IMG/VR virus record: IMGVR_UViG_3300011474_000007
Span: 1-64,000 of that record
From: an uncultured virus (IMG/VR IMGVR_UViG_3300011474_000007)
Lineage: Duplodnaviria > Heunggongvirae > Uroviricota > Caudoviricetes
Reading direction: 5' to 3' (one strand)
DNA length: 64,000 nt
The notes under the pieces were generated by a model. The model ran no database searches, was not told where the DNA came from, and saw nothing but the letters and a program-made list of their open reading frames with translations. Both the position numbers and the translations under genes were made by a program. The number at the start of each line of letters is the position of its first letter. Position 1 is the first letter of the stretch. Shown here one piece after another: positions 1,314-49,940 of the stretch.

Positions 1314-4300
1314 TTATAAATGTGTTACTCTTTCTTTTATTTCTTGAGTCCTTCCTATACTCCAATAGTTTGTGCCTATATAACCACAAGTTCTTCTCAT
1401 TACTTGCATTTCTGATTCATCTCTATTACCACAATTAGGACAATACCACTTAAAATTTTCATCATTTAACATTTCACCACTATATCCACATTTATAACAT
1501 ATATCAGGTTTAGTATTAATCTCAGCATATTGAATATTATGATATATAAAATTAATTACTTGTTCCACTGCTTCTAAGTTTTTACTCATATCTGGAACTT
1601 CTATGTAAGATATACACCCACCCAAGCTAATATTATGAAATTGTGATTCAAATTTTAATTTACTAAAAGCATCAATTTTTTCGCATACATTAACGTGGTA
1701 AGAATTTGTATAATATAATTTATCTGTAACATTAGGTATTTCTCCAAATTTTTGTTTATCTATTCTACAGAATCTATAAACAGTGTTCTCTGCAGGCGAA
1801 CCATATAAACTAAATCCTAAGCCAGTTTCTTCTTTCCATTTTTTACAACAATTATTCATATGATTCATAACTTCTAATGCAAACTTTTCTCCCTCTTTAG
1901 TTGTATGACTAATCCCTAGCATAGCTTGAACCATTTCATATATGCCAACATATCCTAGTGATAATGTTGAATAACCACTCTTTAAATATTTATCTATTTT
2001 TTCACCCTTATGTAATCTTGCTATTGCACCATGTTGCCAATGAATAGGAGAAATATCTGATAATGTTCCTAATAACTGTTTATGTCTAAATAATAATGCT
2101 TCCTTACATAATTCTAATCTTTGATTTAAAATATTCCAAAATAAATCCATATTTTTATTTGCTATAATACCTATTTGCGGAAGATTTAAACTAACAACTC
2201 CTTGATTAAATCTTCCATAAAATTTATAATTGCCATTCTCATCTTTATAAGGTGAAAGGTGAGACCTGCACAAGCGAGATGTATATTACTATACTGGTTA
2301 CTCACTTCGACTATATCTTTACAAATATAAATATTAACAATTATACTTGCACCTTGCACTTCCATCAATGGAATTTCACCCTTGATGTACTCTACTCAGT
2401 TACTCTCCTGTATTATTACAAGATACCCTTTCGATAGTCTGTTGACCTTTTATATAATCTTCATAATATTTGAAATAATAACCATTGTATGGAGACTTAG
2501 TTTTCCTTTTACATCTAGAACAAACCATACTATCAGTTGTAACATTGTGAAATTTTTGCAGTTCTCTAATTGAATTAAATATATTAATATTTTTTGGATT
2601 ATCTATAGAGATAGATACACATTTTTTAGAGGTAGGGCTTAGTATACCTCGTTTCCCAAACATACCATTTCTCTCACCACAAAATCCCCCATGAATCCTC
2701 ATTGGGTTTTTATCGCCTAGCTTGCTTTTACTTAATTTTTTCGATATTTCTTTTCTATTAGGGTGTTTAGACAGTGTATCTCCTCCACATTTTCCTTTGC
2801 TTGTTTTAGTATTATAACCTTTATTTATTGTATCTAATTTATTAATCCAAAGCATTTCTTTTTCATCTAATTCAGATTGAGTTGTCGCACTATCTATTTG
2901 CTCTATATGAAAATTTTCAGCTCCATATTTTCTTACTGCTCGATAAAATTTTGTATCATGTTCATATTTTTGATATCCCATGTGTCTTTTAAATCTTTGT
3001 TTTAAGGTTTCACTAGTTTGTCCTATATATAGTTTATTATTTTTTTTACATACTATTTTATATATTATCAAAGTTATTACACCTTATTTTTTTAGCTCGT
3101 TATAAGATTATATAACTTGGCACAGGATTGACCTCAACTTTACTTGGTAGGCTTCCCCTGTTAGCCTATTCATTAACAAATTATTTCTCATTTGATACTT
3201 TAACGTTGAATAGACACCCTAGATTTCTAGGTTCACAAGGTTTTACATGGGCAACTTATTTACCCATCGGTGGGAAAGTATTCCCTTCATAATTTTCTCT
3301 CATCATTTTAGCTGATTGATAGTCCGGAACTAATCTTTTTGCTGTACATTTAGCAGCTAATTTAGTTATGTAATCATACTTGCCACCTTCTAAACAATTA
3401 TGTTCATCTAATAAATAAACTAGCTTAGGGAAAGCCTCTCCAATTTCCTGCCCTTTATAATTTTTCATACCTTTTAATCTTTGCTTTATCATTTCTTCAC
3501 AAATCAACGCTTGTTCTTCTTCATATTCACTTCCAGCTTCTATTTGTAAATGTATAGTAGCAAACGGTGCTTGCTTGCACCACTTTATATTTCTATAAAG
3601 AATAGACTATCTCTTTACCCTCAACATAGTTGATAGGGTAGTCGGCACTTCGGAATAAGGAGTTCCACCTTAAACCTACACTATTCATAACCATATTCAA
3701 TAAGAACTTAGGTCGTTTTAGTTAGTCGTTACACCTTCAAAGAAGTTTTCTTCTAAGTTTGGCTCGGTATTGGCATGTTAAATTTAAATATAAATCCATT
3801 TATATCCTGCAAAAGTTTTATGAGCACCCTTGCAGGCTTTTGATAAATTATCACTTTTTTTACCTGTGTAGTAAATTTCGGCTTCAATAGCACTATTAAA
3901 AATCTCATTTGTATCTAAATTTTTAACTTTTTTAAATGTAGAATTTTGTTTATCTTTTTTCATTAAACATATACTTTTTACATACCATTTAAAACTTTCC
4001 TCCATCATTTATATTTAAATTTAATTTAGCTTTCACCGATAGCATTACTACAGTATAGTAATACACCCTAGATTTCTAGGTTCACCGACTGATACTCTAA
4101 CATATTACTATATTAGACAGCCATTTTGACCATTAGTTGTTTGCAATGTAGATAACTGATATCTTATAGTTTGTACACCGTCTTTTAAAGCTTTTTTTCT
4201 TCTATGCTTTGCTTCCTTTAAAGCCAATTCCTTATCATTGTATTCTTTCATAAAATATTTATATTCTTTATCATAACTCTTTCTTAAATAAGGTGCTAAA

Positions 4301-4983
4301 TGTTTAATTGTTATACTTTGTCCACCATATTGATTACTAGCAACTTGAGCCATTATTTGAGTAACTACAGTACATGCTGTTTCAAAAGATTTAGGAGATT
4401 CAACTAGTTTATCATTTATTACAGTTCCATTGTCTAACATATCTTGTAAATTTATTAAACAACAATTAAAAATTTTTTGAATAGCATAATCTAAATCATG
4501 ATAATGTATTATTCCATTATCATGTGCTTGTACTATGTATGTTGGTATCTTTTTTCTTCTTGCTATGTCTTTTGATACTTCTCCAGCAATTAGATCTCTT
4601 TGAGTTGAAGCCACATAAGCATTTTTATTAGAATTTTCTCTCATTATATCTTCATTAGTTGTATCAATTAGAGATAATATACTTTCATCAGTAGTGTTTG
4701 TTCCTCTTTTAAATTCTTGAACAGCTCTATATCCTTCATAAGCTTTTGCAGTTTGATTTTGCTTGTATTGAATTAATTTATTATAAACATAGGTTTCAAT
4801 TTGAAATATAGTAGGGATAGAATCCAGTGTTTTAAAATATTCTTCGGCATCACTACTTATAGTTTTTGCTATTTTAGGTAAATATACTCCACTTCCATTC
4901 TTCATAGCCTTTACAATTGCTATCTCTATTTTATTCTTGTCAAAATTTGTTTTTGTACCATCTCTTTTTATAATTTTAATCAT
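1314..4983 (-). CDS. nrdD: Class III (anaerobic) ribonucleotide reductase, 3 exons
   Basis: Exons 4983-4129, 3573-3262 and 2270-1314 join in frame (TTNG|QAPF and PPMG|CRSH) to 707 aa; N-terminal ATP cone, CxxC...CxxC metal site and RRTCGY glycyl-radical loop. Confidence 0.95.
2271..3261 (-). ncRNA. Group I intron (second nrdD intron), contains GIY-YIG endonuclease
   Basis: Exon ends in U (ATGGGT) pairing with intron GCCCAT (P1 with U-G); terminal G at 2271; GACTA and GATATAGTC (P7) elements; removal restores PMGCRS. Confidence 0.93.
2400..3071 (-). CDS. Intron-encoded GIY-YIG homing endonuclease
   Basis: IIY...LYIGQT...R...E...GYN motif, NUMOD3/NUMOD1-like C-terminus; lies inside the intron. 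Confidence 0.9.
   Translation of the reverse strand: MIIYKIVCKKNNKLYIGQTSETLKQRFKRHMGYQKYEHDTKFYRAVRKYGAENFHIEQIDSATTQSELDEKEMLWINKLDTINKGYNTKTSKGKCGGDTLSKHPNRKEISKKLSKSKLGDKNPMRIHGGFCGERNGMFGKRGILSPTSKKCVSISIDNPKNINIFNSIRELQKFHNVTTDSMVCSRCKRKTKSPYNGYYFKYYEDYIKGQQTIERVSCNNTGE
3574..4128 (-). ncRNA. Group I intron (first nrdD intron)
   Basis: Exon ends AATGGT; intron ends in G before CAA GCA CCG TTT; shares GAACCTAGAAATCTAGGGTGT and P7 elements with the second intron. Confidence 0.92.
3784..4008 (-). CDS. NUMOD1-like DNA-binding mini-ORF (homing endonuclease remnant) inside intron
   Basis: KKVKNLDTNEIFNSAIEA...LSKACKG..KTFAGYKW pattern; no nuclease domain. Confidence 0.65.
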   Translation of the reverse strand: MMEESFKWYVKSICLMKKDKQNSTFKKVKNLDTNEIFNSAIEAEIYYTGKKSDNLSKACKGAHKTFAGYKWIYI

Positions 4984-5123
4984 GCAATTCCTTCTTTCTT
5001 GTTAATTAATTAATGTCTATTAATCTCTCAATCTATTTTTAAATATTCACTCACCTCCTTCATAAGCTCATCACATTTTTCTTTGTCAAATTATTTTTAA
5101 ATAAAATCAACCTTTTATTTAAT

Positions 5124-6374: not shown

Positions 6375-6658
6375 CTCCCATTTAATATTATCAAATTATT
6401 TTATATAAGTCAAGCATCTGAATTTATTTTAACTTTTCATAAAAACTATATATAACCCTAGGTTTCTTATATTTTTATATAATTCAATATTTAATTTTTA
6501 ATACAAATTTATTAAAATTGTTTACTTTTTTCATATTTACATAATATTTATAATGTAAATTAATTTTCTTCTTTCTATTGTTTCAAATGTTTTATTTACT
6601 GTTTTCTCCTAATTCTTCTAACTCCATATACTTTCTTATAAATTGTTTTATATTATAA

Positions 6659-7345: not shown

Positions 7346-7864
7346 CTATATATTTTTCAGATAATCTCTTATATAATATTTAAGAACATAATAAATAAAT
7401 ATAAATGCAACATCTCTATCAATAAATATAAAAGGAAAATCATATGATATTGATAAACTATGCAACATAGCAAGATAAGAATTAGGTTCAAGTTTGTTTT
7501 TATAAGTTTTATTAATTATATTTTTATATGTATCATCTTCTATCATTAATATCAATTTGCTATCTTTGGCTTTTTCAAACTCTCTTTTAAATCTATCTCT
7601 ATTCGTACTTATATTATTGCCTAACTCATTTAGACTATTTTTTCTCTCAATCACTATTTTAGTGTTAAAATAAATATCTTCTTTAATATTATACTTATCA
7701 TTTTTAGGTAGTTTTACAGAATAATCTCCAAAATCTAATTTATATTTTTCCCAGCTTATATCATACTTATCAAATGATTTTATAATATGTGAATTAGCTT
7801 TTTCTCTAGTATCTACTAAAATAACTATTGTATTTAGTAACTCTTTAATTTCTTTATCTTTCAT
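7346..7864 (-). CDS. ERCC4-type nuclease
   Basis: VDTRE...GDY...ERKxxxE...IE motif. Confidence 0.85.
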   Translation of the reverse strand: MKDKEIKELLNTIVILVDTREKANSHIIKSFDKYDISWEKYKLDFGDYSVKLPKNDKYNIKEDIYFNTKIVIERKNSLNELGNNISTNRDRFKREFEKAKDSKLILMIEDDTYKNIINKTYKNKLEPNSYLAMLHSLSISYDFPFIFIDRDVAFIFIYYVLKYYIRDYLKNI

Positions 7865-10800
7865 TAATTCACCACCATACTATAATTATTTAATATAAAT
7901 TCTTTTTCATCTAATACTACCCATTTACCATCAATTTTTCTTCTTTTTGGTTTTTCTTTAATATCATTTATACAAATCATATCATATTGGGATAATGGTT
8001 TTTCATTAAAATATTTTTTATCTACTTTAAGTGTTGCAGATGTTCCATCATTTAATTTATATAAAGTTATAAAAGGTGTCCCATACCTATTTTTTTCTAT
8101 CTCTGAAACTATTACAGTGTTATCATTGTATGATTTGTCTATATAAGATATATAACCTACGTATTCTGACTCTGTTTCAAATATTTCTTTAATAGATATA
8201 TCTTCATTAGGTATATTATCTATTAGCTTCTTCATTAAATTAAACATATCTATATCTTTAAATAATTTTTCCGTTTCTTTTTTTGAATATCTTCTAACTA
8301 AATCTATTGTTAATAAATTTGGTAAATTGTCCTTTCTAAATTGTTTCTTTTTATATACACTATTAAATATATTAAATATAGTTAATATCTTATTTGATTT
8401 ACCAAATTCAGAAAAGAAATCTAATTTTATAAGTATTTCAAATTGTCTCATATCAATACTTGTTTTATCCAAAATATCTTTCATAGCTTCCAAGAATGAA
8501 TCATATTTATTTTCTCTTAAACGATATAATTCCTCTCCTATTTTTTCATTACAATATTTTATACTTCCTATACCTTTATAAATAGTGTTAGTTTCTTTAT
8601 TAGGCATATATTTTCCACTAGAATATCTAAACTTAGGTGGTCTAATTGATATGTTTAATTGTTTTGCTAATTCTGTCCCCATTACAATATCTTTTTCGTT
8701 GTCTCCATTATTTAAATATGCTGTTGTAAACTCTAAAGGATAATAATATCTCAATAACCCACAATTATATCCTATCATACTATATCCTGTAGAATGATTA
8801 TATCCAAATTGATATTCAGCACTATCAGAAAGTATTTTTATAAATTGCTTTGCTTCTTTTTCTGCTATATCTTTTTCTTTATTGGCATATTTACAATATC
8901 CATCCAATATTTTGGGTAGCTCTTCTTCTAATATGTCTAGTTTTTTTCCACCTATTGCTCTTCTTACATTATCTGCATGGCTACCACTAAATCCACATAT
9001 ATTCATTAAAAACTTTAATGTATCTTCTTGGAATACTAAAAACCCATTGTTATCTTCTAATAATGCATCAATTTCTTTAGAAGGATTGTTGTTATATTCT
9101 CCTTGTATTAACCTGTCTCGATAACTTTTTCCTGAAGGTCTTAAAGAAGCGTTTACTAACGATAAATCATTAATTTTTAACTCTTCATTACTTTTAATTT
9201 TTCTTGAAATATATTTTTTTAATAAATCAAAGGCATAATTCGTTATTTCTTATGTTTCCATAAGAACTGACTATATCTTTATCTTATAACCTATATAAGA
9301 TACCATGCACTTCCAAACAAGGAATTTCACCCTGAATGTACTCTACTTTGTTATCGATTAAGAATATGGTCTTAATTTACATTTCGATAGTCGATTGAGG
9401 TTTTGTTAATTTATGTACATTAATTTCTTTTTTATAAATCTAATTTTTCACTTTTTATGTGTTTTCTTTTATATAATTTACTCTTATATAAGCCATGTCT
9501 TTTATTCATCATTATCTCCTATATGTGAACACACAAACCAACAACTTCCCACAGGATTGCCATATCATATTTAACTTAGGTTTTCCTGTTAGCATAATCA
9601 CTATTAGTCATTTCCTACTAATCCTAAACGTTGATTATACACCCTATATTTATAGGTTCACATGGTTTAACGAGAGCAATTTGTTTACCCTCAAACTGAA
9701 AAATTCCTACTGGCGATTCTATAATATTTCTCCACACCTCTTGATTTTCCCAATCTATCTCATGCGATTGTAGATAATTAGAGTTAATTAATTTATATGT
9801 ATCTTTTATAATTCCTATATTTTTTAAACCTAATATATCATATTTAACATAATTTAAATCATGTAATTCATCCATATTTATTTGTGAAATTATCTTATTA
9901 TCAGTATACATAACTCCTATATTATTTTTTAATGTAATAGGTGATGCCACTATACCTGCTGGATGCATACCTTTGCTAATAACAGTCCCTTTTAACCCAT
10001 CAAAATAATAAAATAATTCATTATACTTATCTTTTAAATTTAAATAGTTATTATATTTTTCTATAAACAAATCTATTTCTTTTTCATCTTTTAAATTTAG
10101 CTTCTTTAACTCATCTAAAAATTTATTATGTTTAAGAAAATCTAAATTGCTTTTTTCTTTTCCTGTTACTTTATTATAAGCGTCTGTATATTTTTGTTGT
10201 ATTGTTGCAAATTCTTCTTTTATATTTTTTGTATTATTTATACTATATTTTTTTGCTATCGCTTCATCATCTTCATATAAAATTGTCAAAGCTCTAGATA
10301 TTTCATCTATAGTACCTTTATCTGCTATTGTTCCTGTAGTTAAAATATAACAAGTGTATTCCTCTCCAAATCTATTAATAATATATTGATAAACCTTTTC
10401 TCTATCTGATGGGCTAAAATCCAAATCTATATCTCCTAAACTAACTCTATCTTCATTAGCAAAACGTGAAAAAATAGTATTCCATCGTACAGGATCTACA
10501 TCTATTATATCTAATATATAAGCAATAGTTGATCCCCCTACGCTTCCTCTACAAAAACCTGTTGGAATATCATTGTTATGGCACCATCTAACTAGCTCAC
10601 TCATGAATAACATGAAACTAAACATTCCTAGTTTCTTAAACACTTTATATTCTGTTTGTATATTTTTTATATATGCTTTATTACTACCATCAATAATTCC
10701 TTTATCTATTTTTTCTTGATATAATTTAGCTACAGTTTCTCTAAATGTTCTATCTTCATCCTTATATAAATTAGGATATTTAAAAGATGTATCAAAAGAA

Positions 10801-11609
10801 ATATCTTGAATTATATCATTTAATTTATTTGTATTATTTATTGCTTCTATATAGATATCATATGGTATTAGATTTTCTTTTTCTTCTTGTTGCTTATACT
10901 TTTCTATCAATGTTTCCGTTGTTTGAAAGGTTAAATCAAAAGAATCTTCATCAGCATAAACCATTTTTTTAGCAGTTTTTAATATTTTTCTACATTCAGC
11001 TTTATATTGCGTTGATGAGTGTGTATCTGTCCCTAATATTAAGGGTTTATTATATTTCTTAGATAATTTATATAAATACATATTAAAATCTCTTTGTTGT
11101 TGATAATCATGAGGTTGTATCTCAAAAAAAGTATATTTTTCTGCTAACTTTTCATAATAAGGATTTTTCTTATCTAATTGTGCTAATGGTGATGCTAGAC
11201 AAGCAGAAGTAGATATTATATTATCAGATATATTTAAAAATTCATCAAATGTAATTCTAGGTTTATAATATTTATGTAAGTTATCATCAGCTATTGATAC
11301 TAAAGACATTAATTCGGATACCCCTTCATTATTTTTAGCTATTAAGACTGTATGATAATTATCTCTAATTTTTTCATTTAATGTTTCTGTTAAATATACT
11401 TCACAAGCGAATACGAATTTTATATTTTTTTTATCACAATATTGTTTCTTTTCATACCAGTTTATTATATTACCATGTTCAGAGAATGCTATTGCTTTAA
11501 TATTATTTTTTTCACATAAATCTATATAGTCTTTATAATTTGTACAACTATCTAATAATGATAATTCCGTATGCACATGATATGGAAAATAGGTATGTAA
11601 AACATTCAA
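7864..11609 (-). CDS. dnaE: DNA polymerase III alpha (DnaE, family C), 2 exons
   Basis: Exons 11609-9687 and 9240-7864 join in frame (FQFEG|NYAFDLL) to 1099 aa; PHP domain (HVH, TDTH), RGS, DIDLD, HPAG, KYDILGL. Confidence 0.95.
9241..9686 (-). ncRNA. Group I intron in dnaE
   Basis: P1 GAGGGT/GCTCTC with U-G pair; terminal G at 9241; ATCGACTATCG and AAGATATAGTC core elements. Confidence 0.92.
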
Positions 11610-24109: not shown

Positions 24110-24289
24110 TCCAAAGCATCTCCCTTTGATTTGTAAACAAATTATTTTATATTAATAAAATAACACGTATTAGAAAAAATTACAAGAATTATTTTAAAAT
24201 TTCCTTATATTGAACCTCGCTTCCTATAATTTTATTTTAACAAATTGCGTTATTATTGCCAAAACTATAAATTGGATAAAAAAACTTTC

Positions 24290-37741: not shown

Positions 37742-38249
37742 TTAAAACATCTCCTTATAATTAACAAATTATTTTATAATAATTTCTAGTTTTTCATTTT
37801 AATTTTTAATATATGTATATCCCGTTGACACTTGTTATTATAATATTATGGCTTTTAATAATAGCTAAATTGTTTATACTGTCTTTATGATTTTAGTACC
37901 ATGTATAAATTGAAAACACCCTCTATTCTTATTGTTAATTACTTCCCTCACTCTCTAACTATATTATACATCTATAGGATACAATTGTCAATATATTTAT
38001 CAAATTATTTTTAAATTAAATATAAAAAAATAGTAGTGTAAAACTACTATAAAGGTATATATTAAGTTGACCTAGTTAGCTTTCTTTATTAACAAATAAT
38101 AATATTAGGTTAACTATAGTCAAAATTATAATAAATATATTTTTACTATAAATACTATAAATTAAAAATAAAATTAAGGTTGATAGTAAAATTTTATTAG
38201 TGATTTTTAAATTCATAACTATATAATGGATTTAGGTAAGGGAAAAGCA

Positions 38250-38520: not shown

Positions 38521-38667
38521 TTAACGCCTTTTCCTTTTAGATTTAGACTTTTTGGATTTTTTCTTATGTTTTTTGTTGTATATATCCTTTAACTGGAATG
38601 CGAGGATAAATACATTAAACAAAGAACCTAAGAACTCCAAAAGGTCTTTTATTTTTTGTAAATCCAT
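38521..38667 (-). CDS. Type I toxin-like peptide, 48 aa (not in ORF track)
   Basis: MDLQKIKDLLEFLGSLFNVFILAFQLKDIYNKKHKKKSKKSKSKRKRR; GGGAGG RBS; TTGACT-17-TATAAT promoter. Confidence 0.75.
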   Translation of the reverse strand: MDLQKIKDLLEFLGSLFNVFILAFQLKDIYNKKHKKKSKKSKSKRKRR

Positions 38668-40027: not shown

Positions 40028-40068
40028 AACGTATAAAGACTCACACGACTTTAATCGTGTGAGGTTCA
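40028..40068 (+). mobile_element. Orphan IS200/IS605 right end
   Basis: 37/41 identical to 49900-49940, including the hairpin and terminal GGTTCA. Confidence 0.8.
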
Positions 40069-40194: not shown

Positions 40195-40485
40195 TTATTT
40201 TCCAAACAAACTCTTAGCAAACACCCATAAAGCTCTAAAGTAATTTATAGGATTACCGTAATATTTTACCCCCTCCCAAAAGTCATTTACGGCTTGAAAA
40301 CTGTTCAGAAAAATAAGAATTATACAACAACCACAACAAACAATTGTAAAAGCTTTAATCAAATCTGCTTTATTATTACTTCCAAAAGCTCTTATGGTTT
40401 TTTCTACAACTGTACCTACAACATAAACTTTCCCTATTTCTAATAACAATTGAAAATTGGTCATTATGTCACCTACTTCATACAA
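40195..40485 (-). CDS. Small membrane protein, SpoIIIAC/AD-like
   Basis: Two hydrophobic helices around EKTIRAFGSNNKADLI. Confidence 0.6.
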   Translation of the reverse strand: MYEVGDIMTNFQLLLEIGKVYVVGTVVEKTIRAFGSNNKADLIKAFTIVCCGCCIILIFLNSFQAVNDFWEGVKYYGNPINYFRALWVFAKSLFGK

Positions 40486-40667
40486 TTGCTAACTGTATTT
40501 AAAAGTTTAAAAGCAGTAGTTGCTACTGTAGTACCCATTAAAGATATAGTTACAACACTTATACTTTGAGCAATGTCTTGTTTACCTAATGCGGTACATA
40601 ATTTCTCTATAAGACAACTTCCAACCGCCATACCACCCATAGTAATTATTATTTTTGTATTACCCAT
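40473..40667 (-). CDS. Small membrane protein, SpoIIIAC/AD-like
   Basis: MGGMAVG..LIEKLC.ALGKQDIAQ.I pattern, like the SpoIIIAC helix-GK-helix. Confidence 0.65.
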   Translation of the reverse strand: MGNTKIIITMGGMAVGSCLIEKLCTALGKQDIAQSISVVTISLMGTTVATTAFKLLNTVSNCMK

Positions 40668-40765
40668 AAATAATCCATTCCTTTCTATGGATACATATCC
40701 CTTTTTTATTAAAACATCATAATAAAGTTAATATAATATCTTGATATAAGAGGGATATATACCCT

Positions 40766-41050
40766 CTATTTTCTCTTTTTATAACTTTTAAAATCAACAA
40801 CATTATTTTCATTAACGGCCTTCTTATGTTCAATATTTTCTGTTTGATTTTGTTTAATATAAATTTTATCTTTTAATTTTTTATTTATATTTTTTGTTTT
40901 CTTTAAAAGTAATCTAAGTATGTTACAATTTAAAATTAATATTTGTTTAACTATGTTTGAAAATAAATAAATCAACTTTCCAGCCTTTGTATTTCTTAGA
41001 ATTATAAATAAAATTTGTAATCCTAAAATACTTATTAAAACATCTATCAT
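40766..41050 (-). CDS. Small membrane protein with basic tail
   Basis: N-terminal TM; AAGGAG RBS. Confidence 0.65.
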   Translation of the reverse strand: MIDVLISILGLQILFIILRNTKAGKLIYLFSNIVKQILILNCNILRLLLKKTKNINKKLKDKIYIKQNQTENIEHKKAVNENNVVDFKSYKKRK

Positions 41051-41402
41051 TACTTTATCTCCTTTGTGTAATTTGAATCTTTTGTATGGTTTTTTAATAA
41101 ACTTTTGTGTGATTACTTAGACTCAAAATAATTAATATATTAATTCAAATCATTTATATATAAGTTATTTAATTTTCAACATTAATACAGTTTTAACTAT
41201 CGATATTTATATCTATTTATATATAAATGAGCAAAATCTCATCAAGACTTCAAACTCTTTTTATAAAAATAAACTGATATAACTATCAATAATTAAAGCT
41301 ATATAATATTAAAAATGAACACTTATATAATAATTTGCGTTATATAAAAATTACTTTAAGTAAAGTATTCAGCTTCTGTTTATGTAAAATATTCCTTAAT
41401 GC

Positions 41403-41431
41403 ATTATATGAGAATTATTCAAGAAGTGTGA
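41403..41431 (-). promoter_or_regulatory. Sigma-K-type promoter
   Basis: TCACA-N16-CATATAAT on the minus strand. Confidence 0.55.
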
Positions 41432-41606
41432 AACTTGTTTGGTGAAGATGGGGATGCTTTTGCATTGTTCCCCACCCTCTATATAGCTTCACTACGCTAT
41501 ATATTTGAAAATAAAGATGGCTTGATTGCTTGATTATAGGTGTATTAGGTGTGATTATTGTAATCATATACTGTAACATATACTATGATATATGTTATGT
41601 TCTAGA

Positions 41607-42257
41607 TTATTTAGTAAATATTTTTAAGAAATTATCTAATTTATGATTCAGATGAATGAATTTTATATTACTTTCTATATCTTGAAAATGGTCTCCACTA
41701 TCTATTAAAATTACCTGTGGAAACTCTCCAAATAATTCTTGTAATTCATTTGATTTATATAAATCTTCATATTTTTTTATTGTATTATGTCCAAAGTTAG
41801 TTGATGCAACTTCAACGATTTGAATATAGTGTTTACCATTAAATTCAAATATAAAAAATCCATCACTTTTTATTTTACCTTTTAACCAATTTTGTTCTCT
41901 TTTAAAATACTTTATATCCACGTCATGATACAATAGTTCTGCATAATAATCTAAAAGCAATATTCTGTGTAAGGAGGGTTTTAAATTTTGATATTCCTTA
42001 GAGTTAAATGTATAGGCATTTGTATTATTTAAAAAAGATAATTTAGTTATTTTAATATAGTTACATTCCTCTAGTCTCTTTAATCGTCTTCTTGCTATTG
42101 CTTGACCTTGGCTTTTATCTTTATAAAATATTTTAGCAATTTGTTTAGCTGTGCATACACCAACATTTTCAATATATCTAGCTATTTGCTTATCATTATC
42201 TGTTAACATGTGATCACTCCTTTGGTTTTGGTGGAATGTAAGGTACATAACCTTCAA
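41607..42257 (-). CDS. Replication-relaxation (Replic_Relax)-like protein: wHTH + PD-(D/E)XK
   Basis: TAKQIAKIF...ARRRLKRL wHTH, H, then KSDG...IVEV...KKY; probable start at MLTDND, coupled to ftsK. Confidence 0.75.
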   Translation of the reverse strand: MKVMYLTFHQNQRSDHMLTDNDKQIARYIENVGVCTAKQIAKIFYKDKSQGQAIARRRLKRLEECNYIKITKLSFLNNTNAYTFNSKEYQNLKPSLHRILLLDYYAELLYHDVDIKYFKREQNWLKGKIKSDGFFIFEFNGKHYIQIVEVASTNFGHNTIKKYEDLYKSNELQELFGEFPQVILIDSGDHFQDIESNIKFIHLNHKLDNFLKIFTK

Positions 42258-43968
42258 TCTTAGATAAATTTTCTTTTAATAGCTCTTCTTTAGTTTTAGG
42301 ATGTACTTTAGAGAAATCATTTTTAATATAAGGAGATTTAACAGAATTGCTTTGTTTTTTTATATTGACTTTGGAATTGTTTTCAGATGGCTTATCAATA
42401 GTTTTTAATGATTTGATTTTTTGATTTTGTTCTTGTAATTGCTTTATTCCAGCATTTATATCATCTTTTTTATTTTGATTATTAAATTTTGTATTAGAAT
42501 CACTATCAGATTTTTTATCTTTTTTAGGAGTTTTTACTATGCTTTCCTTAACATATTGATATATACTATCTGTTAAATCTAATGTGTATAAATAGCCCTC
42601 ATAAGCCTTACAGATTACATATGCTTTTCTAGGAGGTAAGCCTACTGCTTCGTATCTACCTTCGCCTAAAACGATTGTAGAGCACACAGAATCATTAAAT
42701 CCATAACATACCCTAACGTTACTCATGTTCTTAAGAAAGCTACTTAAAAGTAGCTTCTGAGGCTTCTGGTGAGATATGACATAAGTAATTCCATAAGCAC
42801 CTCCGAATTGTGCTATTCGTTCTAATAAATCAATAATGTCTTTGTAGAAACTTTTCTTATCTTTTATAGCATTAGCAGCAACAGTCATTATTTCATCTAC
42901 AACAACATAAATATATGGCAATTTATTTTCAGGATGTTTTCTATTATAATCTTTAAGATTTGGGTCTTGAAAATTATCTATCATAGACATAAATAATTTT
43001 TTTCTTCTATTCATTTCTTTATTTATATTTTCTATAATTTTTAAAATAGTGCTCATATCATCACAAAATGCAAATTCACTTACCTGTTTACAGTTTCTAT
43101 ACTTAGCCAAGTCCCCTTTTGCACCTTGTAATAGATATAAACTAACTTCATCTTCAGTATTATTATGAATTAAATTGGTTATTATATGATCTAAAGTACC
43201 GTTTTTACCACTTCTAGTTGAGCCAGCTATTAAAATATGAGGTTCTGAATTAATATCAACTAATATAGGATTTCCACTTTCGTCTACTCCTAAAAATAGT
43301 TCATATGGCTTTGTAGTTGGTACAGGTTTAAATTTAATCTTATTACAATTTTCAATATATATAAATTTACCATCTATATAGTTTTTATTTGCATAAGTTT
43401 TAAGAACAACAGTACACTTTAGGTTATTTTGTAATGTTTCTCTGACACTGCTTAGATGTTTATAGTTGTATCCCCAAGGAATATATAATCTTGCTTCAGC
43501 ACCATAAGAAGTAAACTTCAAATCATTTGGAGAAAAAGTTTGATGCATTTTATTAAAGAGTTCTGTATAAGTCATTGCTTTTTCCCAATTGCTCAGAAAT
43601 TCGGTTCTTTTCTGCGCCAGTATTATATCTTCTTTTATCTTACTGGTACATTCTTTAAATTTATCCTTTGATACACCTTGTTTTCTTATATTATCTTCTA
43701 AATCAATTTGTTTACCACTTTTAACTTGTTTTTTCTTTTCCGTATTTATATTTTTAGTTTCTTTGTTTTTTAATTTCCAAAATACATTGCTTTCTAAGTT
43801 AGCTTTTTTTCTATTTTTAGATTTATTAAATATGTTTTGAAGTGTTTTTTTGCAACTGTCTTTTAATAACAGTTTCTTATTTTCAATTTGTTTTTCTTCA
43901 TCATGAACATTAATAATATTTCCTTTTGAATCCCTTATAGTAAATTTAGCAATTACTTTGCTGCTCAT
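42214..43968 (-). CDS. FtsK/SpoIIIE-family ATPase
   Basis: PHILIAGSTRSGK, EMNRR, YVVVDE, SHQKP. Confidence 0.9.
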   Translation of the reverse strand: MSSKVIAKFTIRDSKGNIINVHDEEKQIENKKLLLKDSCKKTLQNIFNKSKNRKKANLESNVFWKLKNKETKNINTEKKKQVKSGKQIDLEDNIRKQGVSKDKFKECTSKIKEDIILAQKRTEFLSNWEKAMTYTELFNKMHQTFSPNDLKFTSYGAEARLYIPWGYNYKHLSSVRETLQNNLKCTVVLKTYANKNYIDGKFIYIENCNKIKFKPVPTTKPYELFLGVDESGNPILVDINSEPHILIAGSTRSGKNGTLDHIITNLIHNNTEDEVSLYLLQGAKGDLAKYRNCKQVSEFAFCDDMSTILKIIENINKEMNRRKKLFMSMIDNFQDPNLKDYNRKHPENKLPYIYVVVDEIMTVAANAIKDKKSFYKDIIDLLERIAQFGGAYGITYVISHQKPQKLLLSSFLKNMSNVRVCYGFNDSVCSTIVLGEGRYEAVGLPPRKAYVICKAYEGYLYTLDLTDSIYQYVKESIVKTPKKDKKSDSDSNTKFNNQNKKDDINAGIKQLQEQNQKIKSLKTIDKPSENNSKVNIKKQSNSVKSPYIKNDFSKVHPKTKEELLKENLSKIEGYVPYIPPKPKE

Positions 43969-43978
43969 TTACATCACC

Positions 43979-44167
43979 CTATTTGTTTATTTTTATATTA
44001 CAACTATCATTAAATCCTTTTTCGAACTTTTTAATCTTTTTGAGATTTCTTGTAACAGTCATGTACTGCACTTTATTTTTATTCTTATCTTTTGACCATA
44101 TCTTATAAATGATATATGACACAAACCAAATGCCCCAACATATAAATCCAATCATTGTTATATCCAT
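43979..44167 (-). CDS. Small single-TM protein heading the FtsK operon
   Basis: GGAGG RBS; TM at residues 5-24. Confidence 0.65.
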   Translation of the reverse strand: MDITMIGFICWGIWFVSYIIYKIWSKDKNKNKVQYMTVTRNLKKIKKFEKGFNDSCNIKINK

Positions 44168-44210
44168 TAAGCTACCTCCTCAAGATTTATGTAGGTTATA
44201 TTTTATACTA

Positions 44211-44240
44211 TATACTATGGCATATGTCATAGATATGTGA
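44211..44240 (-). promoter_or_regulatory. Sigma-K-type promoter
   Basis: TCACA-N16-CATAGTATA about 45 bp upstream of the ATG. Confidence 0.6.
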
Positions 44241-44290: not shown

Positions 44291-44953
44291 GTGTTTAGCG
44301 TGAGGATTGGAAGAGTATTTAGAAATACTAAGCGTGTTTTTAATATAATTTTATCTATAATAAGTTTTGGATTAGGTGTTCTTAGTTTTATTATATTTGC
44401 TATATATAAAACTTATAATTATGTAAAAAGAACTATATTTTATATAAATAAAACGTACAATTATTTAGATATTCAAAAGGAAATTAAAGCTATGGATGGC
44501 AGGCAATTCGAGATATTTTGTGGAGAATTATTTAAACAATTAGGGTTCAAAGTTAAAGTAACACAAAAAACTTGTGATTGTGGTAGAGATATAATATTAA
44601 AAAAGAATGGCTTTACAACTTATGTTGAATGTAAGAAATACGGAATAAACAACTTGATTGGAAGAGAACCATTACAAAAATTAGTAGGCAGTTCTATTGC
44701 GGATAGTGTTTTAAATATGATTTTTATAACTACAAGTGATTTCAACAAAAATGCCAAAGAATATGCTAAAAAAATGGATAGTTTAAAGCTCTGGACTACT
44801 ATAGATATTATGAAAAACATAGAAAAATTAAATGATAATCAGATATGTACAATATTTAAAAATACAGAAATGAAATATAATCGTGGAAATATAGTTGAGA
44901 AATTAGAAAATATTAATGAGAATTTAGTAGAAATAAATAAGAGTTTTAGGTAG
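44291..44953 (+). CDS. Mrr-like (Mrr_cat) endonuclease with N-terminal TM
   Basis: QFE...LG...DCGRDI...VECK...ITTSDF...A. Confidence 0.85.
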   Translation: MFSVRIGRVFRNTKRVFNIILSIISFGLGVLSFIIFAIYKTYNYVKRTIFYINKTYNYLDIQKEIKAMDGRQFEIFCGELFKQLGFKVKVTQKTCDCGRDIILKKNGFTTYVECKKYGINNLIGREPLQKLVGSSIADSVLNMIFITTSDFNKNAKEYAKKMDSLKLWTTIDIMKNIEKLNDNQICTIFKNTEMKYNRGNIVEKLENINENLVEINKSFR

Positions 44954-45007: not shown

Positions 45008-46081
45008 TTAGATATCCCAAAAATTATCATCGGCAAATAAATCATCTAGATCTTTGCTTGATAATTTAGATTTTGTTTCTACTTCTTCTTCACCTGATCT
45101 ATTTTTATTTGTATTCTCACGTTGAACTATTAGGTCGTCTTGAACAACTCTTTTACTTTTTTTATTCTTCATTTCTTTTAATGCTTCTTTAGTTAATTCT
45201 ATAGCCTCTTTAGGCATTTCACAACCACCAAAAACAATAACATTATTACCGTCATCACCGTTATTGAACTTAGAAAATCCATATACTTCAAAATCTTTTT
45301 TCATGGAATTTATATCGAAATCATTCTTGTTTATGTTCCCTATCATACCATCGCAATTAAATTTTTCAGGCATATAGAATACACTAGATTTCATAGAAAC
45401 ATCTATTGCATCATTGATATCTCTTATCTTATTATCTAGTTTCAAAACAACTTTATATCCATTTGAACAATGAACTCTTTTTGTATCAGAACTATCTAAT
45501 TTACCACCAACTACTTCAAATCCTTCATTTAATTCCTTCATTGCTCTTAAGTTTACTTCTTGTTCATTAGAACATTTGTTATTATCTATGAATTGAATAC
45601 TATCTATTATTTTTTTATTCTTTAAAGCAATTAATTCATTCCAAGTATCTATAGTATTTTCAAAATCAAGATCACTTTCAGTCAAACTAGGAAATGTTGC
45701 AACTATATTTAAGGATTTTTCAGGACATAAATTTTTAACTATATATGGTAATAAAATTATAGCTTTTGAGCCTGTCCCTCCATTCATAGAGCTAAAAAAG
45801 TATACTACATCTTGATTAATGAATTTTTTTATCATTTCTGCAAATTTAGGAGCTTCTTCTTTTATGTATTCTTCAGCGACAGTTCTATTTTTACCAGTAC
45901 CATCAGCATTTGCTATATAAAAGCATCTTCTTTTTCTATCAAAGAATTTTAGGTTTTCCATTTCTGATAAATTAGTATTCATAAAAACACCAGTATATCT
46001 TTTATCTAAACCTAAGAAAACATCAAGTTGATTACAACCGCAACCTCCACAACCTACTGCTAATATCTTACTTTTTTCCAT
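45008..46081 (-). CDS. tubZ: Tubulin/FtsZ-like partition GTPase
   Basis: GCGGCGCN, DGTGKNR, and the NGGTGS tubulin signature. Confidence 0.9.
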   Translation of the reverse strand: MEKSKILAVGCGGCGCNQLDVFLGLDKRYTGVFMNTNLSEMENLKFFDRKRRCFYIANADGTGKNRTVAEEYIKEEAPKFAEMIKKFINQDVVYFFSSMNGGTGSKAIILLPYIVKNLCPEKSLNIVATFPSLTESDLDFENTIDTWNELIALKNKKIIDSIQFIDNNKCSNEQEVNLRAMKELNEGFEVVGGKLDSSDTKRVHCSNGYKVVLKLDNKIRDINDAIDVSMKSSVFYMPEKFNCDGMIGNINKNDFDINSMKKDFEVYGFSKFNNGDDGNNVIVFGGCEMPKEAIELTKEALKEMKNKKSKRVVQDDLIVQRENTNKNRSGEEEVETKSKLSSKDLDDLFADDNFWDI

Positions 46082-46084
46082 TTG

Positions 46085-46372
46085 TTATACCTCCCCAAAT
46101 ATATTTACTCGTAAACTATTTAACTCTTCAAAGCCTTTTTTTGTGAGCATAAAAGTATCTGCTCTTATAATTTTCAATCCCTTATCAATAAAACCTAATT
46201 TTTCAAACTTTTTTAATGTTTGTCTTACTTTTTTATCTGATAATTCAGTTTTTTCTATTATCTCTTTAACAGTTGTGCCATTACCTTTGCAAAGCCCTTT
46301 TTTTGTGTCATTTCTGTCAATTATAGCTTTTAATATTCTATAATCATTTTCCGTAAAGATAGTAGAACACAT
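46085..46372 (-). CDS. tubR: wHTH centromere-binding protein
   Basis: TVKEIIEKTELSDKKVRQTLKKF..LGFI wHTH; 3 bp upstream of tubZ. Confidence 0.8.
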   Translation of the reverse strand: MCSTIFTENDYRILKAIIDRNDTKKGLCKGNGTTVKEIIEKTELSDKKVRQTLKKFEKLGFIDKGLKIIRADTFMLTKKGFEELNSLRVNIFGEV

Positions 46373-46930: not shown

Positions 46931-47019
46931 GTGATATTTATATAAATGAAAAGTAACATATACGTTTTAATTTACTTATGTTATACTTTAACTAAGCTTT
47001 GTTTAAGGAGTGGTTAAAA

Positions 47020-47760
47020 GTGAAAAATTTTGATAAAGATAATATTATTGATGCTGAATTTACAAATGTAGAAGAAAACATAAATAATGAGGACACTAAA
47101 ACAAGGTTGATCCGCGGTGAGCCTTTGTTCTTCACGACAATGCAGGTAAGTAAAATGGTAGGGGTAGAACCTTCAACTATAAGATTCTGGAGTAAAAGAT
47201 TTGAAAATTTATTAGATGTAGAAATTTCTAATAAAAATAAGCAGTACAAAAAATCAGATGTAGAGAAATTAAAATTTATTAAAAAGTTAACAAAACACGA
47301 TGGGCTTACGCTTCAGCAAGTGCAAGATTATTGTAGCACAAAAGGTTTTGATATAAATGAAATAGAACAAAGTGTAGTAGATTCTAGTAATCCATTGGCT
47401 ATTCAAACCATAATGTCAGCTTTAACAGTAGAGATAGATAAGAAGTTAAACTCTTTTTCAGAAAACTTATTAAATGAAATTGACAAGAGGCAAAAGAATG
47501 GGGTTTTAATTCAACAAGAAATGAATGATAAACTTCATGAAACTATAGCATTAACAGTAGATGAAATAGTTTCTGAAAAGTTAGACAAGTCTGTATCTGA
47601 GTTTAAATCCTATGTAGACGAAAAAGAAAGACAAGCTACTTCGAGAGATATAGAAATGATTGATATGTTAAAAAACAACATGGAAGAAAGAAAAAAGCAA
47701 CAAGAAGAGATAGAAGCAGAAAAGAAGAAATCATTTTGGGGAAGGTTATTAGGAAAATAA
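47020..47760 (+). CDS. tubY: MerR-HTH/coiled-coil partition regulator
   Basis: MerR HTH (VEPSTIRFWS), coiled coil, amphipathic KKSFWGRLL tail; GTG after AAGGAG; divergent from tubRZ. Confidence 0.75.
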   Translation: MKNFDKDNIIDAEFTNVEENINNEDTKTRLIRGEPLFFTTMQVSKMVGVEPSTIRFWSKRFENLLDVEISNKNKQYKKSDVEKLKFIKKLTKHDGLTLQQVQDYCSTKGFDINEIEQSVVDSSNPLAIQTIMSALTVEIDKKLNSFSENLLNEIDKRQKNGVLIQQEMNDKLHETIALTVDEIVSEKLDKSVSEFKSYVDEKERQATSRDIEMIDMLKNNMEERKKQQEEIEAEKKKSFWGRLLGK

Positions 47761-48116
47761 TCTTCCTTATACCTTAAATTGTGACATCATGAGAAAAGAT
47801 ATGAGAGCAAATTAAACGAAATAGATATAATATACTAGGGAAAGAGAATGTATCTTAAAATAGATTAGAATAAGTTTTAAGAATATATATAAAATAATTT
47901 GAATTTACCAAAATGATAGTTGGCCAATACAAAATAAGTTTAAAATATAAAAGCATACAAAAGGAGAGATTATTATGAAAAGATTTTTTTTACATAATTT
48001 AGGTATTTACATATAGAAATTATGGTAAATATGTTATATAATAGATAGAGTAGTGCACTATATTTTATATAAAATAAAAAATTTGTTTAATAATATTAAA
48101 ATAAAGGTGGGTTAAT

Positions 48117-48530: not shown

Positions 48531-49940
48531 CAAGAACACCCGTGACTTCAGTCATGGGATGAATTGTCAAAAGTATTTGATATATTTAAAATAATTTGTT
48601 AAAATAAATACAAGGAGGTGAGATAAAATGAAATTAAGTTTTAAATATTATCCTAAATTTAATCAACAACAATTAGATATTATGGAAGAATTATCTTATC
48701 ATACAACAAAATTATATAATATAGCAAATTATGATTGTAGGGAAGATATGGTCAAATCTTATGTAGAAATGAATAAGTTATATAACAACAACTACCATAA
48801 ACAGTTTTTACACAGTCATAACTATCAACAGTGTCTTAAATTATTAGAAAAGAATTGGAAGTCTTATTTTGCTAGTATAAAAGATTATAAAAAAAATCCT
48901 AGTAAATACAAAGGCATTCCAAGACGACCTAAATTTAAAAATACTGATAATAAAAAGAATGAAGTTATATTTACTCAACATGCTATAAGAATACAAGATA
49001 ATATACTTAAATTATCCTTATCAAAAGAAATGAAAAATAAATTTCAGGTTCAAAGTTTAAATTTTAATATGAAAAATATTAAAATACCTGTAGATTTAAT
49101 AACTATTAAACAGATAAAATTACAATGAGATAATTCAAAGAAAATATGGTATTTAAATATGATTTGGGTTAAAGAAGAAGTTAACATAGCCAAGGATTAT
49201 GATAATATTATGAGCATTGATTTAGGATTAAATAATTTAGCTACTATAACATTTGAAAATAATACAAATTCTTATATTATTGATGGTAAATATATTAGAT
49301 CTAAAAATAGTTATTATAATAAAGAAATAGCTAAATTGACAAGTATATCAATGAAACAATGTAAAAATTCTAAATATTTTAAGAGAACAAAACAAATCAA
49401 TAAATTACAGACAAAAAGGAATAACTTTATTAAAGATTATATTCATAAAGCAAGTAAGAAAGTAATTGATGTAGCTATTATTAATAGATGTCATACTATT
49501 ATAATAGGTGATTTTAAAGGAATTAAACAAGAAAATGCTGCTAAATCATTTGTACAAACACCTCAACAACAATTAGTTGATAAAATTAAATATAAAGCTG
49601 AATTATTAGGTATAAAAATAATAATGCAAAATGAATCATACACAAGTGGATGTAGTGCTTTAGATTTAGAAGAAATAAGCAAAGATAGTTATAATAAAAA
49701 TAGAAGAATATATAGAGGTTTATTTAAAAGTAATAAAGGAATATTAATTAATGCAGATATAAATGGTAGTTATAATATCATGAGAAAGTATTTAAAATGT
49801 ACTCCAAGGTCTTTGATAAAGATGATGGATAATGGATTTTTGAACAATCCAATACGTTTAAGGGTGGCGTAGTAATACGTGGAAACTTAAATATCAAACA
49901 ACGTATAAAAAATCACGCGACTTTAGTCGTGTGAGGTTCA
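48531..49940 (+). mobile_element. IS200/IS605-family (IS1341-type, tnpB only) element
   Basis: Left hairpin 48539-48558, right hairpin 49913-49934 ending GGTTCA; no tnpA. Confidence 0.85.
48628..49872 (+). pseudogene. tnpB: TnpB RNA-guided nuclease with an in-frame TGA at 49126-49128
   Basis: Both ORFs are in one frame; IDLG, NESYTS and NADING RuvC motifs. Confidence 0.88.

Follow-up and report, generated by a model that had tools for sequence, protein, structure and literature searches.

A Clostridium phage-plasmid member of the phage DNA-translocation cassettes tied to the TubZ/TubR locus

What does a tailed phage do with an FtsK-type ATPase, a relaxase-related protein and a set of small membrane proteins encoded beside its partition genes? 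The question is raised by a cluster of six genes (40195-44240) in the genome of an uncultured virus (IMG/VR record IMGVR_UViG_3300011474_000007), of which the first 64 kb, here called the window, were analyzed (record length 157,535 bp; ~24% G+C; record judged 79% complete). A preliminary description, made from the letters of the sequence, had put this module forward as the best candidate in the window for an undescribed system, a sporulation-linked one under sigma-K-type promoters which would move the element into the spore or to other cells. Here, the module is identified as a divergent and enlarged member of the DNA-translocation cassette of phages, which is carried by a Clostridium phage-plasmid and tied to its TubZ/TubR locus.

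A cassette beside tubZ and tubR

The module proved to be the co-oriented cluster that had been described: the open reading frame (ORF) list gives a transmembrane (TM) peptide, an FtsK without TM segment, a winged-helix nuclease and three small membrane proteins, six genes in the claimed order and all on the minus strand, to which the control elements are assigned as well. The upstream control region P1 (44202..44241) holds the first copy of a ~28-nt box. It is followed by the genes for a 62-aa membrane peptide (43979-44167), whose stop codon lies 10 nt ahead of the FtsK start, a 584-aa FtsK/TcpA-type ATPase (42214-43968) and a 199-aa protein with a winged helix and a PD-(D/E)xK nuclease fold (41607-42206). 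A conserved gap, a non-coding stretch of 556 nt (41051..41606), comes next and contains the second copy of the box directly 3' of the nuclease stop codon (41566..41598), a G+C-rich hairpin (41444..41479) and P2 (41403..41432), ~350 nt upstream of the next gene. The second transcription unit encodes the three small membrane proteins. The ORF list and hydropathy gave a 94-aa protein with an N-terminal TM helix, an amphipathic stretch and a basic tail (40766-41050), which is followed by a 64-aa two-helix membrane protein (40473-40667) and, starting 8 nt past the stop of the latter gene, an 89-aa membrane protein (40195-40464; length from the ATG). A terminator-like hairpin found by sequence scan closes the module (40040..40063). 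Between the 94-aa and 64-aa genes lies a 37-nt imperfect palindrome (40689-40764; 76% complementary), which may be an internal attenuator or processing site.

Searches with an FtsK alignment yielded 11 viral loci, several of them near-duplicates, and all 11 contained the six genes in order. With distant relatives of the 64-aa protein as query, loci of the same build were obtained on a 146-kb (L018), a 49-kb (L025) and a 76-kb contig (L026). No related loci were found with a single-protein FtsK query or in a profile search of genome contigs with an alignment, and tblastn of a distant member of the 64-aa family (P0037) returned c-st-type records only. The genes tubR-tubZ adjoined the module in 14/14 related loci (the window is the 15th), which represent ~7 lineages; in the most divergent aligned lineage, L018, FtsK was 36% identical. 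In the window, TubZ (45008-46081) and TubR (46085-46372), both on the minus strand, are encoded next to the module, as had been noted before. An Mrr-type (Mrr_cat) endonuclease with an N-terminal TM helix is encoded divergently from the module (44291-44953, plus strand); such an endonuclease separates the module from tubR-tubZ in the related loci, c-st (CST191), pNPD1 and L018 among them, with the exception of L025 and L026, where it is missing.

All related loci with named relatives come from Clostridium. The closest annotated DNA was found in four ~200-kb Clostridium botulinum plasmids, which matched 90-93% of a 6.5-kb query at ~80% identity, while a fifth record in the same comparison covered merely 2% of the query. 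Related plasmids were typed as non-mobilizable in PLSDB. Megablast of the DNA versus phages gave no match; by protein, the closest phages were c-st and D-1873, with an FtsK identity of 39%. The module shares its six genes, their order and the long gap with CST192-CST197 of c-st (NC_007581) and with ~200-kb C. botulinum plasmids of the pNPD1_1 type (FtsK identity 39-41% and 69-72%, respectively). In c-st it adjoins the endonuclease CST191 and tubR/tubZ (CST190/189). In both groups the module genes are annotated only as hypothetical or 'FtsK/SpoIIIE-like'.

In a PHROG scan, the left arm of the element encoded its own replication genes (polymerase, primase, helicase, NrdD and ligase), and terminase, portal, tape measure, tail proteins, endolysin and holin were identified in the remainder of the record, as expected for a true tailed phage. 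Both tubZ and tubR are positioned at the GC-skew switch of the window, where the module lies too. From the tailed-phage genes and the position of tubZ/tubR at this switch, the element is identified as a c-st-type plasmid prophage.

The claim that the system is undescribed did not hold for its core. A 'DNA translocation operon' was reported for Bacillus phage 0305phi8-36 (orf200-207), with homologues in SPO1, GBSV1 and Gamma; like the module, it combines a MobC-like winged-helix protein of the relaxase family, an FtsK-type 'coupling' ATPase and small membrane anchors, and its description contains neither the word 'sporulation' nor 'spore' (Pathria et al., 2012, PMC3357382). The same pair was found in Geobacillus phage PK5.1, Bacillus phage Andromeda and Clostridium phage LPCPA58. 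Indeed, an FtsK-like ATPase and a ~200-aa 'replication-relaxation' protein, tightly spaced or overlapping and with small ORFs ahead, are widespread among Bacillus, Geobacillus and Clostridium phages. Such genes often adjoin plasmid segregation systems (PMC9658697), and they are mentioned in passing in PMC9658697, PMC11526630 and PMC3601020. The window module differs from the Bacillus phage operon in several respects: its ATPase has no TM segment of its own, its nuclease is too divergent to pass PF13814, it is fixed beside tubZ/tubR in plasmid prophages, and its second operon encodes a SpoIIIAC/AD-like pair, which the family hidden Markov model (HMM) finds in none of the Bacillus, Geobacillus and LPCPA58 phage loci. 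No treatment of the module was found in the accessible literature on c-st, TubZ/TubY, FtsK and SpoIIIAC combined with prophage. It is concluded that the core has already been described, that the six genes of the module are annotated in c-st as CST192-197, and that no description of the SpoIIIAC-like pair, the tubZ/tubR linkage or the box and covarying hairpin was found in these sources.

Motor, nuclease-fold protein and small membrane proteins

The 62-aa peptide consists, by hydropathy, of a single hydrophobic segment (residues 3-21) followed by a K/R-rich tail. A similarly built peptide precedes FtsK in all 14 related loci, and it is a candidate membrane anchor for the ATPase. In the latter no TM segment could be detected by a simple hydropathy scan, as distinct from a dedicated predictor (top Kyte-Doolittle 19-mer 1.37, none at 1.6).

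The ATPase matched PF01580 (E 6e-22; 78.6 bits, cut-off 24) and phrog_17074 (E 2e-114). When compared with the PDB by sequence, TcpA of plasmid pCW3 was the top match (6o1w, 9.7e-21) and FtsK scored 1.4e-19 (2ius). Foldseek gave 5.6e-18 for TcpA (6o1x_A) and ~7e-18 for the FtsK motor (2ius/6t8g; FtsK best 6.8e-18) over 367-386 columns. In sequence and in fold, TcpA of pCW3 and FtsK are equally close to the ATPase, and as with TcpA-type coupling proteins the ATPase gene sits directly upstream of a relaxase-type gene. The NCBIfam TraB model matched far under its cut-off (E 4.9e-4). In PADLOC, the FtsK-domain models of SspH, mads8 and HerA matched the motor; these matches covered the generic P-loop domain only, and no partner protein was matched.

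In the predicted structure, residues 1-100 are disordered and are followed by an alpha+beta motor (~100-478), a K/N-rich disordered stretch and a conserved C-terminal tail. The part past residue 478 gave no Pfam match. A gamma winged-helix was not found there, where this model of low pLDDT (predicted local distance difference test) contains only disorder and short helices (501-517 and 560-569). The Walker A motif GSTRSGKN (residues 249-256; 43195-43218) is conserved as G-x-x-R-x-G-K-N in 7/7 aligned lineages, with Asn in place of the Ser/Thr of the P-loop; L025 has GKS. The Walker B residues D358-E359 are invariant in the aligned lineages.

The nuclease-fold protein most likely starts at a conserved ATG 7 nt past the FtsK stop; in the ORF list, a TTG at 42257 is its start. 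Its predicted model (pLDDT 91.6) agreed with the fold assigned to it in the preliminary description. Residues 1-75 form a winged helix of the MarR type (Z 9-10), and residues 79-190 align with the nuclease domain of NucS/EndoMS (2vld_B; Z 9.2, root-mean-square deviation 3.0, 103 residues) and with VC1899 (Z 8.3); with Foldseek alone, the best E was 1.4e-3. The protein matched phrog_9996 (E 4e-50) and, weakly, a PHROG entry for 'replication initiation by nicking' (E 9e-4). Its match to PF13814 stayed under the gathering score (17.7 bits versus 25.3; E 0.004; residues 28-69 only), as did that of the homologue P0011 (18.5 bits), and the c-st and L018 homologues gave no match. When the window nuclease family was aligned with three phage proteins, two of which pass PF13814 (6.8e-14 and 6.1e-12), hhalign gave 98.3% (E 1.5e-14; 158 columns). 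These sequence comparisons indicate that the protein is a divergent MobC/Replic_Relax relative which is homologous over both domains. In the alignment, H80, D115 and E132 are invariant and the E-x-K position carries no Lys (E-V-A/V). For a putative relaxase-type activity, the boxes and the hairpin would be candidate nicking sites.

Two of the small membrane proteins had been called SpoIIIAC/AD-like, which is borne out at the level of the superfamily and fails at the level of the named families. The 64-aa protein alone matched TIGR02848 over its full length at an E of 0.045 (14.2 bits, cut-off 56.65), and PF06686 gave no match at E<=0.1 and none at E<=10 across the record. A word-index search with this protein returned 3 close matches only, and neither a SpoIIIAC name nor a Pfam label is attached to any of the 40 relatives obtained by word search. 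In an exhaustive profile search, 46 representatives were identified at E<=0.001, nearly all of 60-66 aa. The aligned family likewise has 46 members, namely 44 of these 46 matches and the window and c-st proteins. TIGR02848 was matched by 37/46 members at E<=0.1 (best 5.7e-9) and PF06686 by 8/46 at E<=0.01 (best 6e-5). In a protein atlas built with a language model, the 64-aa protein scored 0.93 to the SpoIIIAC/AD cluster, with 28/30 matches in that family set. The first ~50 residues of the 89-aa protein are paralogous to the 64-aa protein (hhalign 92%, E 6e-7), and the 64-aa family HMM finds the 89-aa protein at ~1e-6 in every locus (hmmsearch), while its own atlas score was 0.82 only. Every curated SpoIIIAC cut-off was failed. 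The partners SpoIIIAA, AB and AE-AH were not seen among the neighbours, which are the FtsK module and tubZ/tubR and no spoIIIA operon. Judged from sequence, the 64-aa and 89-aa proteins are SpoIIIAC/AD-like at the superfamily level and not orthologues of SpoIIIAC or SpoIIIAD. For the 94-aa protein no family match was obtained (Pfam, PHROG, PADLOC and NCBIfam models); counterparts of 92-118 aa occur in all related loci.

Control region, non-coding stretch and neighbouring genes

The pattern TCACA-N16-CATAnnnT, which had been reported ahead of both sub-operons, was indeed found there: it occurs twice in the window (41403-41431 and 44212-44240; 0.20 expected, 1/100 shuffles reaching 2), and these are its sole matches in the 157,535-bp record. 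The relaxed pattern AC-N16-CATAnnnTA was not enriched in the window (3 versus 4.28 expected). A phage sigma factor able to serve the motif was not found in the record. Elsewhere a different motif prevails, as had been stated. The sequence TAAAATAATTTG (<=1 mismatch) was found 35 times versus 9.8 expected (0/100 shuffles), mostly on the gene strand of each arm and never on the strand of the module, and it is probably the standard -10 plus downstream motif of the phage. Examples lie at 6392-6403, 24138-24149, 37765-37776, 47890-47901 and 48587-48598.

P1 contains TCACA-N16-CATAGTATA (44212-44240), i.e., AC-N17-CATAnnnTA, which overlaps with the alternatives TTCACA-N16-(TGc)CATAGT and ATGACA-N17-TATAAA. 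In C. difficile, sigma-E and sigma-K promoters share a CATAnnnTA -10 element and differ at -35, where the former have ATA and the latter AC (PMC3789822). P1 of the window fits sigma-K, since it has AC at -35 and CATAnnnTA at -10. In the form TCAC[A/G]-N16-CATAG[T/C]ATA it was kept in 8/8 loci tested (the window, pNPD1-type and c-st-type), and the hexamer TATAAG/TATAAA was kept in most lineages. The element CATAG[TC]ATA occurs as a single copy in a constant position upstream of the peptide gene in 13/13 scanned loci and in L025, at a background of 0.044 per kb. Further away, P1 reads TGTCA-N16 in L018 and TCA-N15 in L025 and L026; AC is missing at that -35 spacing in all three, and in L026, which reads AATAGTATA, the C of CATA is lost as well (AATA). 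L025 has a second exact CATAGTATA (5010-5018 of that contig) between the membrane-peptide gene and the FtsK gene.

P2 is a TTCACA-N18-TATAAT sequence with 11/12 positions of the sigma-A consensus, the best such site in the region, and can also be read as TCACA-N16-CATATAAT. This -10 is identical to that of the C. difficile sigK P2 promoter (PMC3789822). Its -35 (TCACA) was kept only in the pNPD1-type loci (2/8), and the -10 without TCACA reads CATATAAT in c-st and CATAATAT in L018. For the proposal of sigma-K promoters the picture is mixed: P1 fits the consensus, while P2 is sigma-A-like with a -35 that is not conserved, and the P1 box is duplicated. Going by these motifs, sigma-K control of the module is possible but unproven.

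The ~28-nt box, CATATG-yy-ATAG(T/C)ATATAGTATAA, covers the -10-like element of P1. Its second copy, after the nuclease gene, is 76% identical to the P1 copy (repeat families D4 and D14) and was present in 6/7 loci shown (ambiguous in L018) and, by eye, in L025. The recurrence after the nuclease gene resembles what would be expected of an operator or transfer-origin site, and the conservation pattern of P1 appears to fit a protein-binding box at least as well as a promoter. The gap itself occupies the same place in 8 measured loci, with a length of 358 nt in L025 or of 555-628 nt, and in the window it is 89% identical to pNPD1_1, versus ~80% for the whole region. In every lineage a hairpin lies ~130 nt into the gap. 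Its stem sequences differ but the pairing is kept, no T-run follows, and it folds in 7/7 loci with -13.6 to -28.2 kcal/mol (75-nt windows). Repeats and an inverted repeat beside a MobC-type gene presumably recall the transfer origins of the MobC type, as for pAD1. Rfam gave only a snoRNA match at chance level (E 0.78) over 37.5-47.2 kb. A conserved small ORF at the hairpin was ruled out, as pNPD1 has an ATG followed by a stop there and the gap contains no conserved ORF. Likewise, the box as TubR centromere was ruled out by location, tubC lying between tubR and cst191 (PMC6009700).

Beyond tubR, a protein of the MerR type, long and helical in its C-terminal half, is encoded at 46999-47760 (plus strand), at the position of CST188 of c-st. 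We take it to be probably TubY, the partner of TubZ and TubR. The C-terminal region of TubY was reported to bind membranes and DNA (PMC7762940). On the other side of the module, tandem repeat units of 270 bp hold two small genes on the minus strand (38076-38216 and 38521-38667), for a 46-aa all-hydrophobic peptide and a 48-aa peptide that combines a hydrophobic helix with a tail rich in Lys/Arg. Both genes are kept downstream of the module in L018 (8489-8653 and 8682-8825). We assume a likeness to type-I-toxin-like membrane peptides, perhaps with a role in plasmid addiction.

Several genes of the window are split. NrdD (anaerobic ribonucleotide reductase; 1314-4983, minus strand) is encoded in three pieces (4108-4983, 3256-3507 and 1314-2273), and the GIY-YIG homing-endonuclease gene among them (2400-3071) suggests one or more introns. 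The DNA polymerase (phrog_405, minus strand) is divided into an N-terminal (9624-11609) and a C-terminal ORF (7864-9006), ~620 nt apart, which could reflect an intron, an intein or a break. A phrog_506 transposase (48628-49872, plus strand) is read as two neighbouring ORFs (48628-49128 and 49159-49872); at another place in the record there is an intact copy of 486 aa (L019, 13202-14662).

Possible functions of the module

As function of the module, we tentatively favour a site-directed DNA pump by which the plasmid prophage would be inherited across septa, among them that of sporulation. This reading is preferred because the module is invariably linked to the partition locus, no T4SS (type IV secretion system) genes were found in the record and the core is present in lytic phages. 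The position at the GC-skew switch, the PLSDB typing of the related plasmids and the reported vicinity of such genes to segregation systems (PMC9658697) also speak for inheritance, while the SpoIIIAC-superfamily pair, the CATAnnnTA -10 element and the Clostridium origin of the named relatives hint at sporulation. The 62-aa peptide would tether a hexameric pump to the membrane, and the winged-helix nuclease would bind the boxes and the hairpin on the element's own DNA and pass this DNA to the pump, which itself has no DNA-reading gamma domain. The small membrane proteins may form a membrane platform or conduit. As a septum closes, the asymmetric one of sporulation included, the pump would bring or clear the low-copy plasmid prophage (150-200 kb) across it, and daughter cells as well as forespores would thereby inherit the element, alongside the action of TubZ/TubR. 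A mother-cell sigma factor might set the timing, but this is unproven.

Several points weigh against a pump for inheritance. The contacts between peptide and pump and between nuclease and boxes are inferred, and the model of the ATPase has a mean pLDDT of 57, with low confidence outside the motor. Pumping activity is uncertain because Asn replaces Ser/Thr in Walker A. FtsK-like matches extend to phages whose hosts do not form endospores, with 52 of 340 records for Mycobacterium, 6 for Staphylococcus and 6 for Listeria, and deletion of the cassette in 0305phi8-36 caused no growth defect in the laboratory (PMC3357382). Finally, the best structural and sequence neighbours of the ATPase include the conjugative coupling protein TcpA, and a coupling protein followed by a relaxase is the gene order of mobilisation modules (PMC5357655).

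The latter two points lead to the main rival of the inheritance reading, mobilisation, which we regard as possible though rather unlikely. In this case the FtsK/TcpA-like protein would act as coupling protein and the MobC/Replic_Relax relaxase would nick an origin formed by the boxes and the hairpin; single-stranded DNA would be exported via a conjugation pore that a co-resident element provides, and the small membrane proteins would dock the pump to this pore. TcpA as top match in both comparisons, the hhalign result for Replic_Relax and the direct and inverted repeats beside a relaxase-type gene argue for it. PF13814 is the MobC relaxase family, and in mobilisable elements of firmicutes the gene of an FtsK-like TcpA coupling protein lies upstream of the relaxase gene; in streptococcal elements, however, MobC relaxases are paired with VirD4 and never with a TcpA-type protein (PMC5357655). 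Against mobilisation speaks that VirB4-type AAA_10 (PF12846) and other T4SS genes, whose absence had been claimed before, were not found in the 157-kb, 79% complete record (Pfam and PHROG). Moreover, the module is constantly linked to partition genes and not to an integrase or excisionase, and the catalytic triad of the nuclease is atypical. Core relatives are present in strictly lytic phages, for which a conjugation role makes little sense (PMC3357382).

With TcpA-type systems (pCW3, the Tn916/ICEBs1 family and streptococcal integrative mobilisable elements) the module shares an FtsK-related motor and an ATPase gene upstream of a nicking-type gene, but it differs in having no T4SS in its record, an ATPase without TM segments and a MobC-like partner. 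The TraB/clt/Spd system of Streptomyces also uses a single FtsK-like pump with small membrane proteins and short DNA repeats and without T4SS. TraB reads its repeats via its own C-terminal winged helix, whereas here this role would fall to the separate nuclease-fold protein, and the host biology differs.

A strict sporulation version, in which transcription of the two operons by sigma-K (or sigma-E) is confined to the mother cell and a SpoIIIAC/AD-like channel and the pump deliver the phage-plasmid into the forespore, is unlikely. It is suggested by the sigma-K-like P1 in the 8/8 loci, the shared -10 of P2 and sigK P2, the absence of the phage's own promoter motif from the module's strand and of a phage sigma factor from the record, and the SpoIIIAC-superfamily pair, since SpoIIIAD belongs to the SpoIIIA membrane complex (PMC2703783). 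Like SpoIIIE and the SpoIIIA-SpoIIQ channel, the module combines an FtsK-family motor with small proteins of the SpoIIIAC/AD superfamily in spore-forming hosts. However, P2 can equally be read as a sigma-A site, TCACA is missing from it in c-st and L018, the AC of P1 is not kept in L018, L025 and L026, where L026 has also lost the C of CATA, the relaxed pattern is at chance level, and the box has a second copy behind the nuclease gene and is conserved beyond the needs of a promoter. The small proteins stay under all curated thresholds, none of the 40 relatives is named SpoIIIAC, the other SpoIIIA components were not seen, and the ATPase has neither the 4-TM domain nor the gamma domain of SpoIIIE. 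In B. subtilis, sigma-K acts after engulfment, which is late for DNA entry. What remains of the earlier proposal of transport into the spore or to other cells is a coherent, conserved module of the DNA-translocation type without T4SS in the record, with real similarity to the SpoIIIAC/AD superfamily and upstream elements unlike the usual promoter motif of the phage, for which sigma-K control is not established. Its fullest form, an element-encoded machine for delivery to the forespore with a tethered pump, a box-binding adaptor, SpoIIIAC/AD-derived proteins, a mother-cell sigma switch and a cargo of 150-200 kb, is improbable.

A role unrelated to moving the element is very unlikely and the least likely of these readings: replication initiation or dimer resolution at the nearby origin could be suspected from the label 'replication initiation protein' on the second gene in Bacillus phage Andromeda, the weak PHROG nicking match and the position at the GC-skew switch, and a membrane-bound nuclease/ATPase that keeps out or degrades competing DNA in defence or superinfection exclusion from the TM-bearing endonuclease as next gene and the SspH, mads8 and HerA matches, but the phage encodes its own polymerase, primase and helicase, the motor has no gamma domain for activating Xer recombinases, the PADLOC matches are generic and without partner, and the module persists in L025 and L026, where the endonuclease is absent.

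In spore-forming Clostridia, low-copy plasmid prophages of 150-200 kb must reach each daughter cell and each spore, and the module alone, of all DNA-pump-like machinery, accompanies the partition locus in every related element that was examined. The module joins three topics that have been studied separately, the 'DNA translocation operons' of phages, the coupling-protein/relaxase pairs of firmicutes and the small membrane proteins of SpoIIIA, and a new SpoIIIAC-like protein family of ~46 representative clusters is defined with it, which has so far been seen only with the module wherever the context is visible. If mobilisation is true, tailed phage-plasmids can also travel by conjugation. If the link to sporulation is true, the module would be a concrete mechanism for the carriage of phage genomes in spores, and a forespore-delivery machine would represent an element-encoded route to 'virospores' in which parts of the SpoIIIA channel were recruited for DNA transport. 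Either way, six genes listed as 'hypothetical' in a well-known family of phages receive a more precise annotation.

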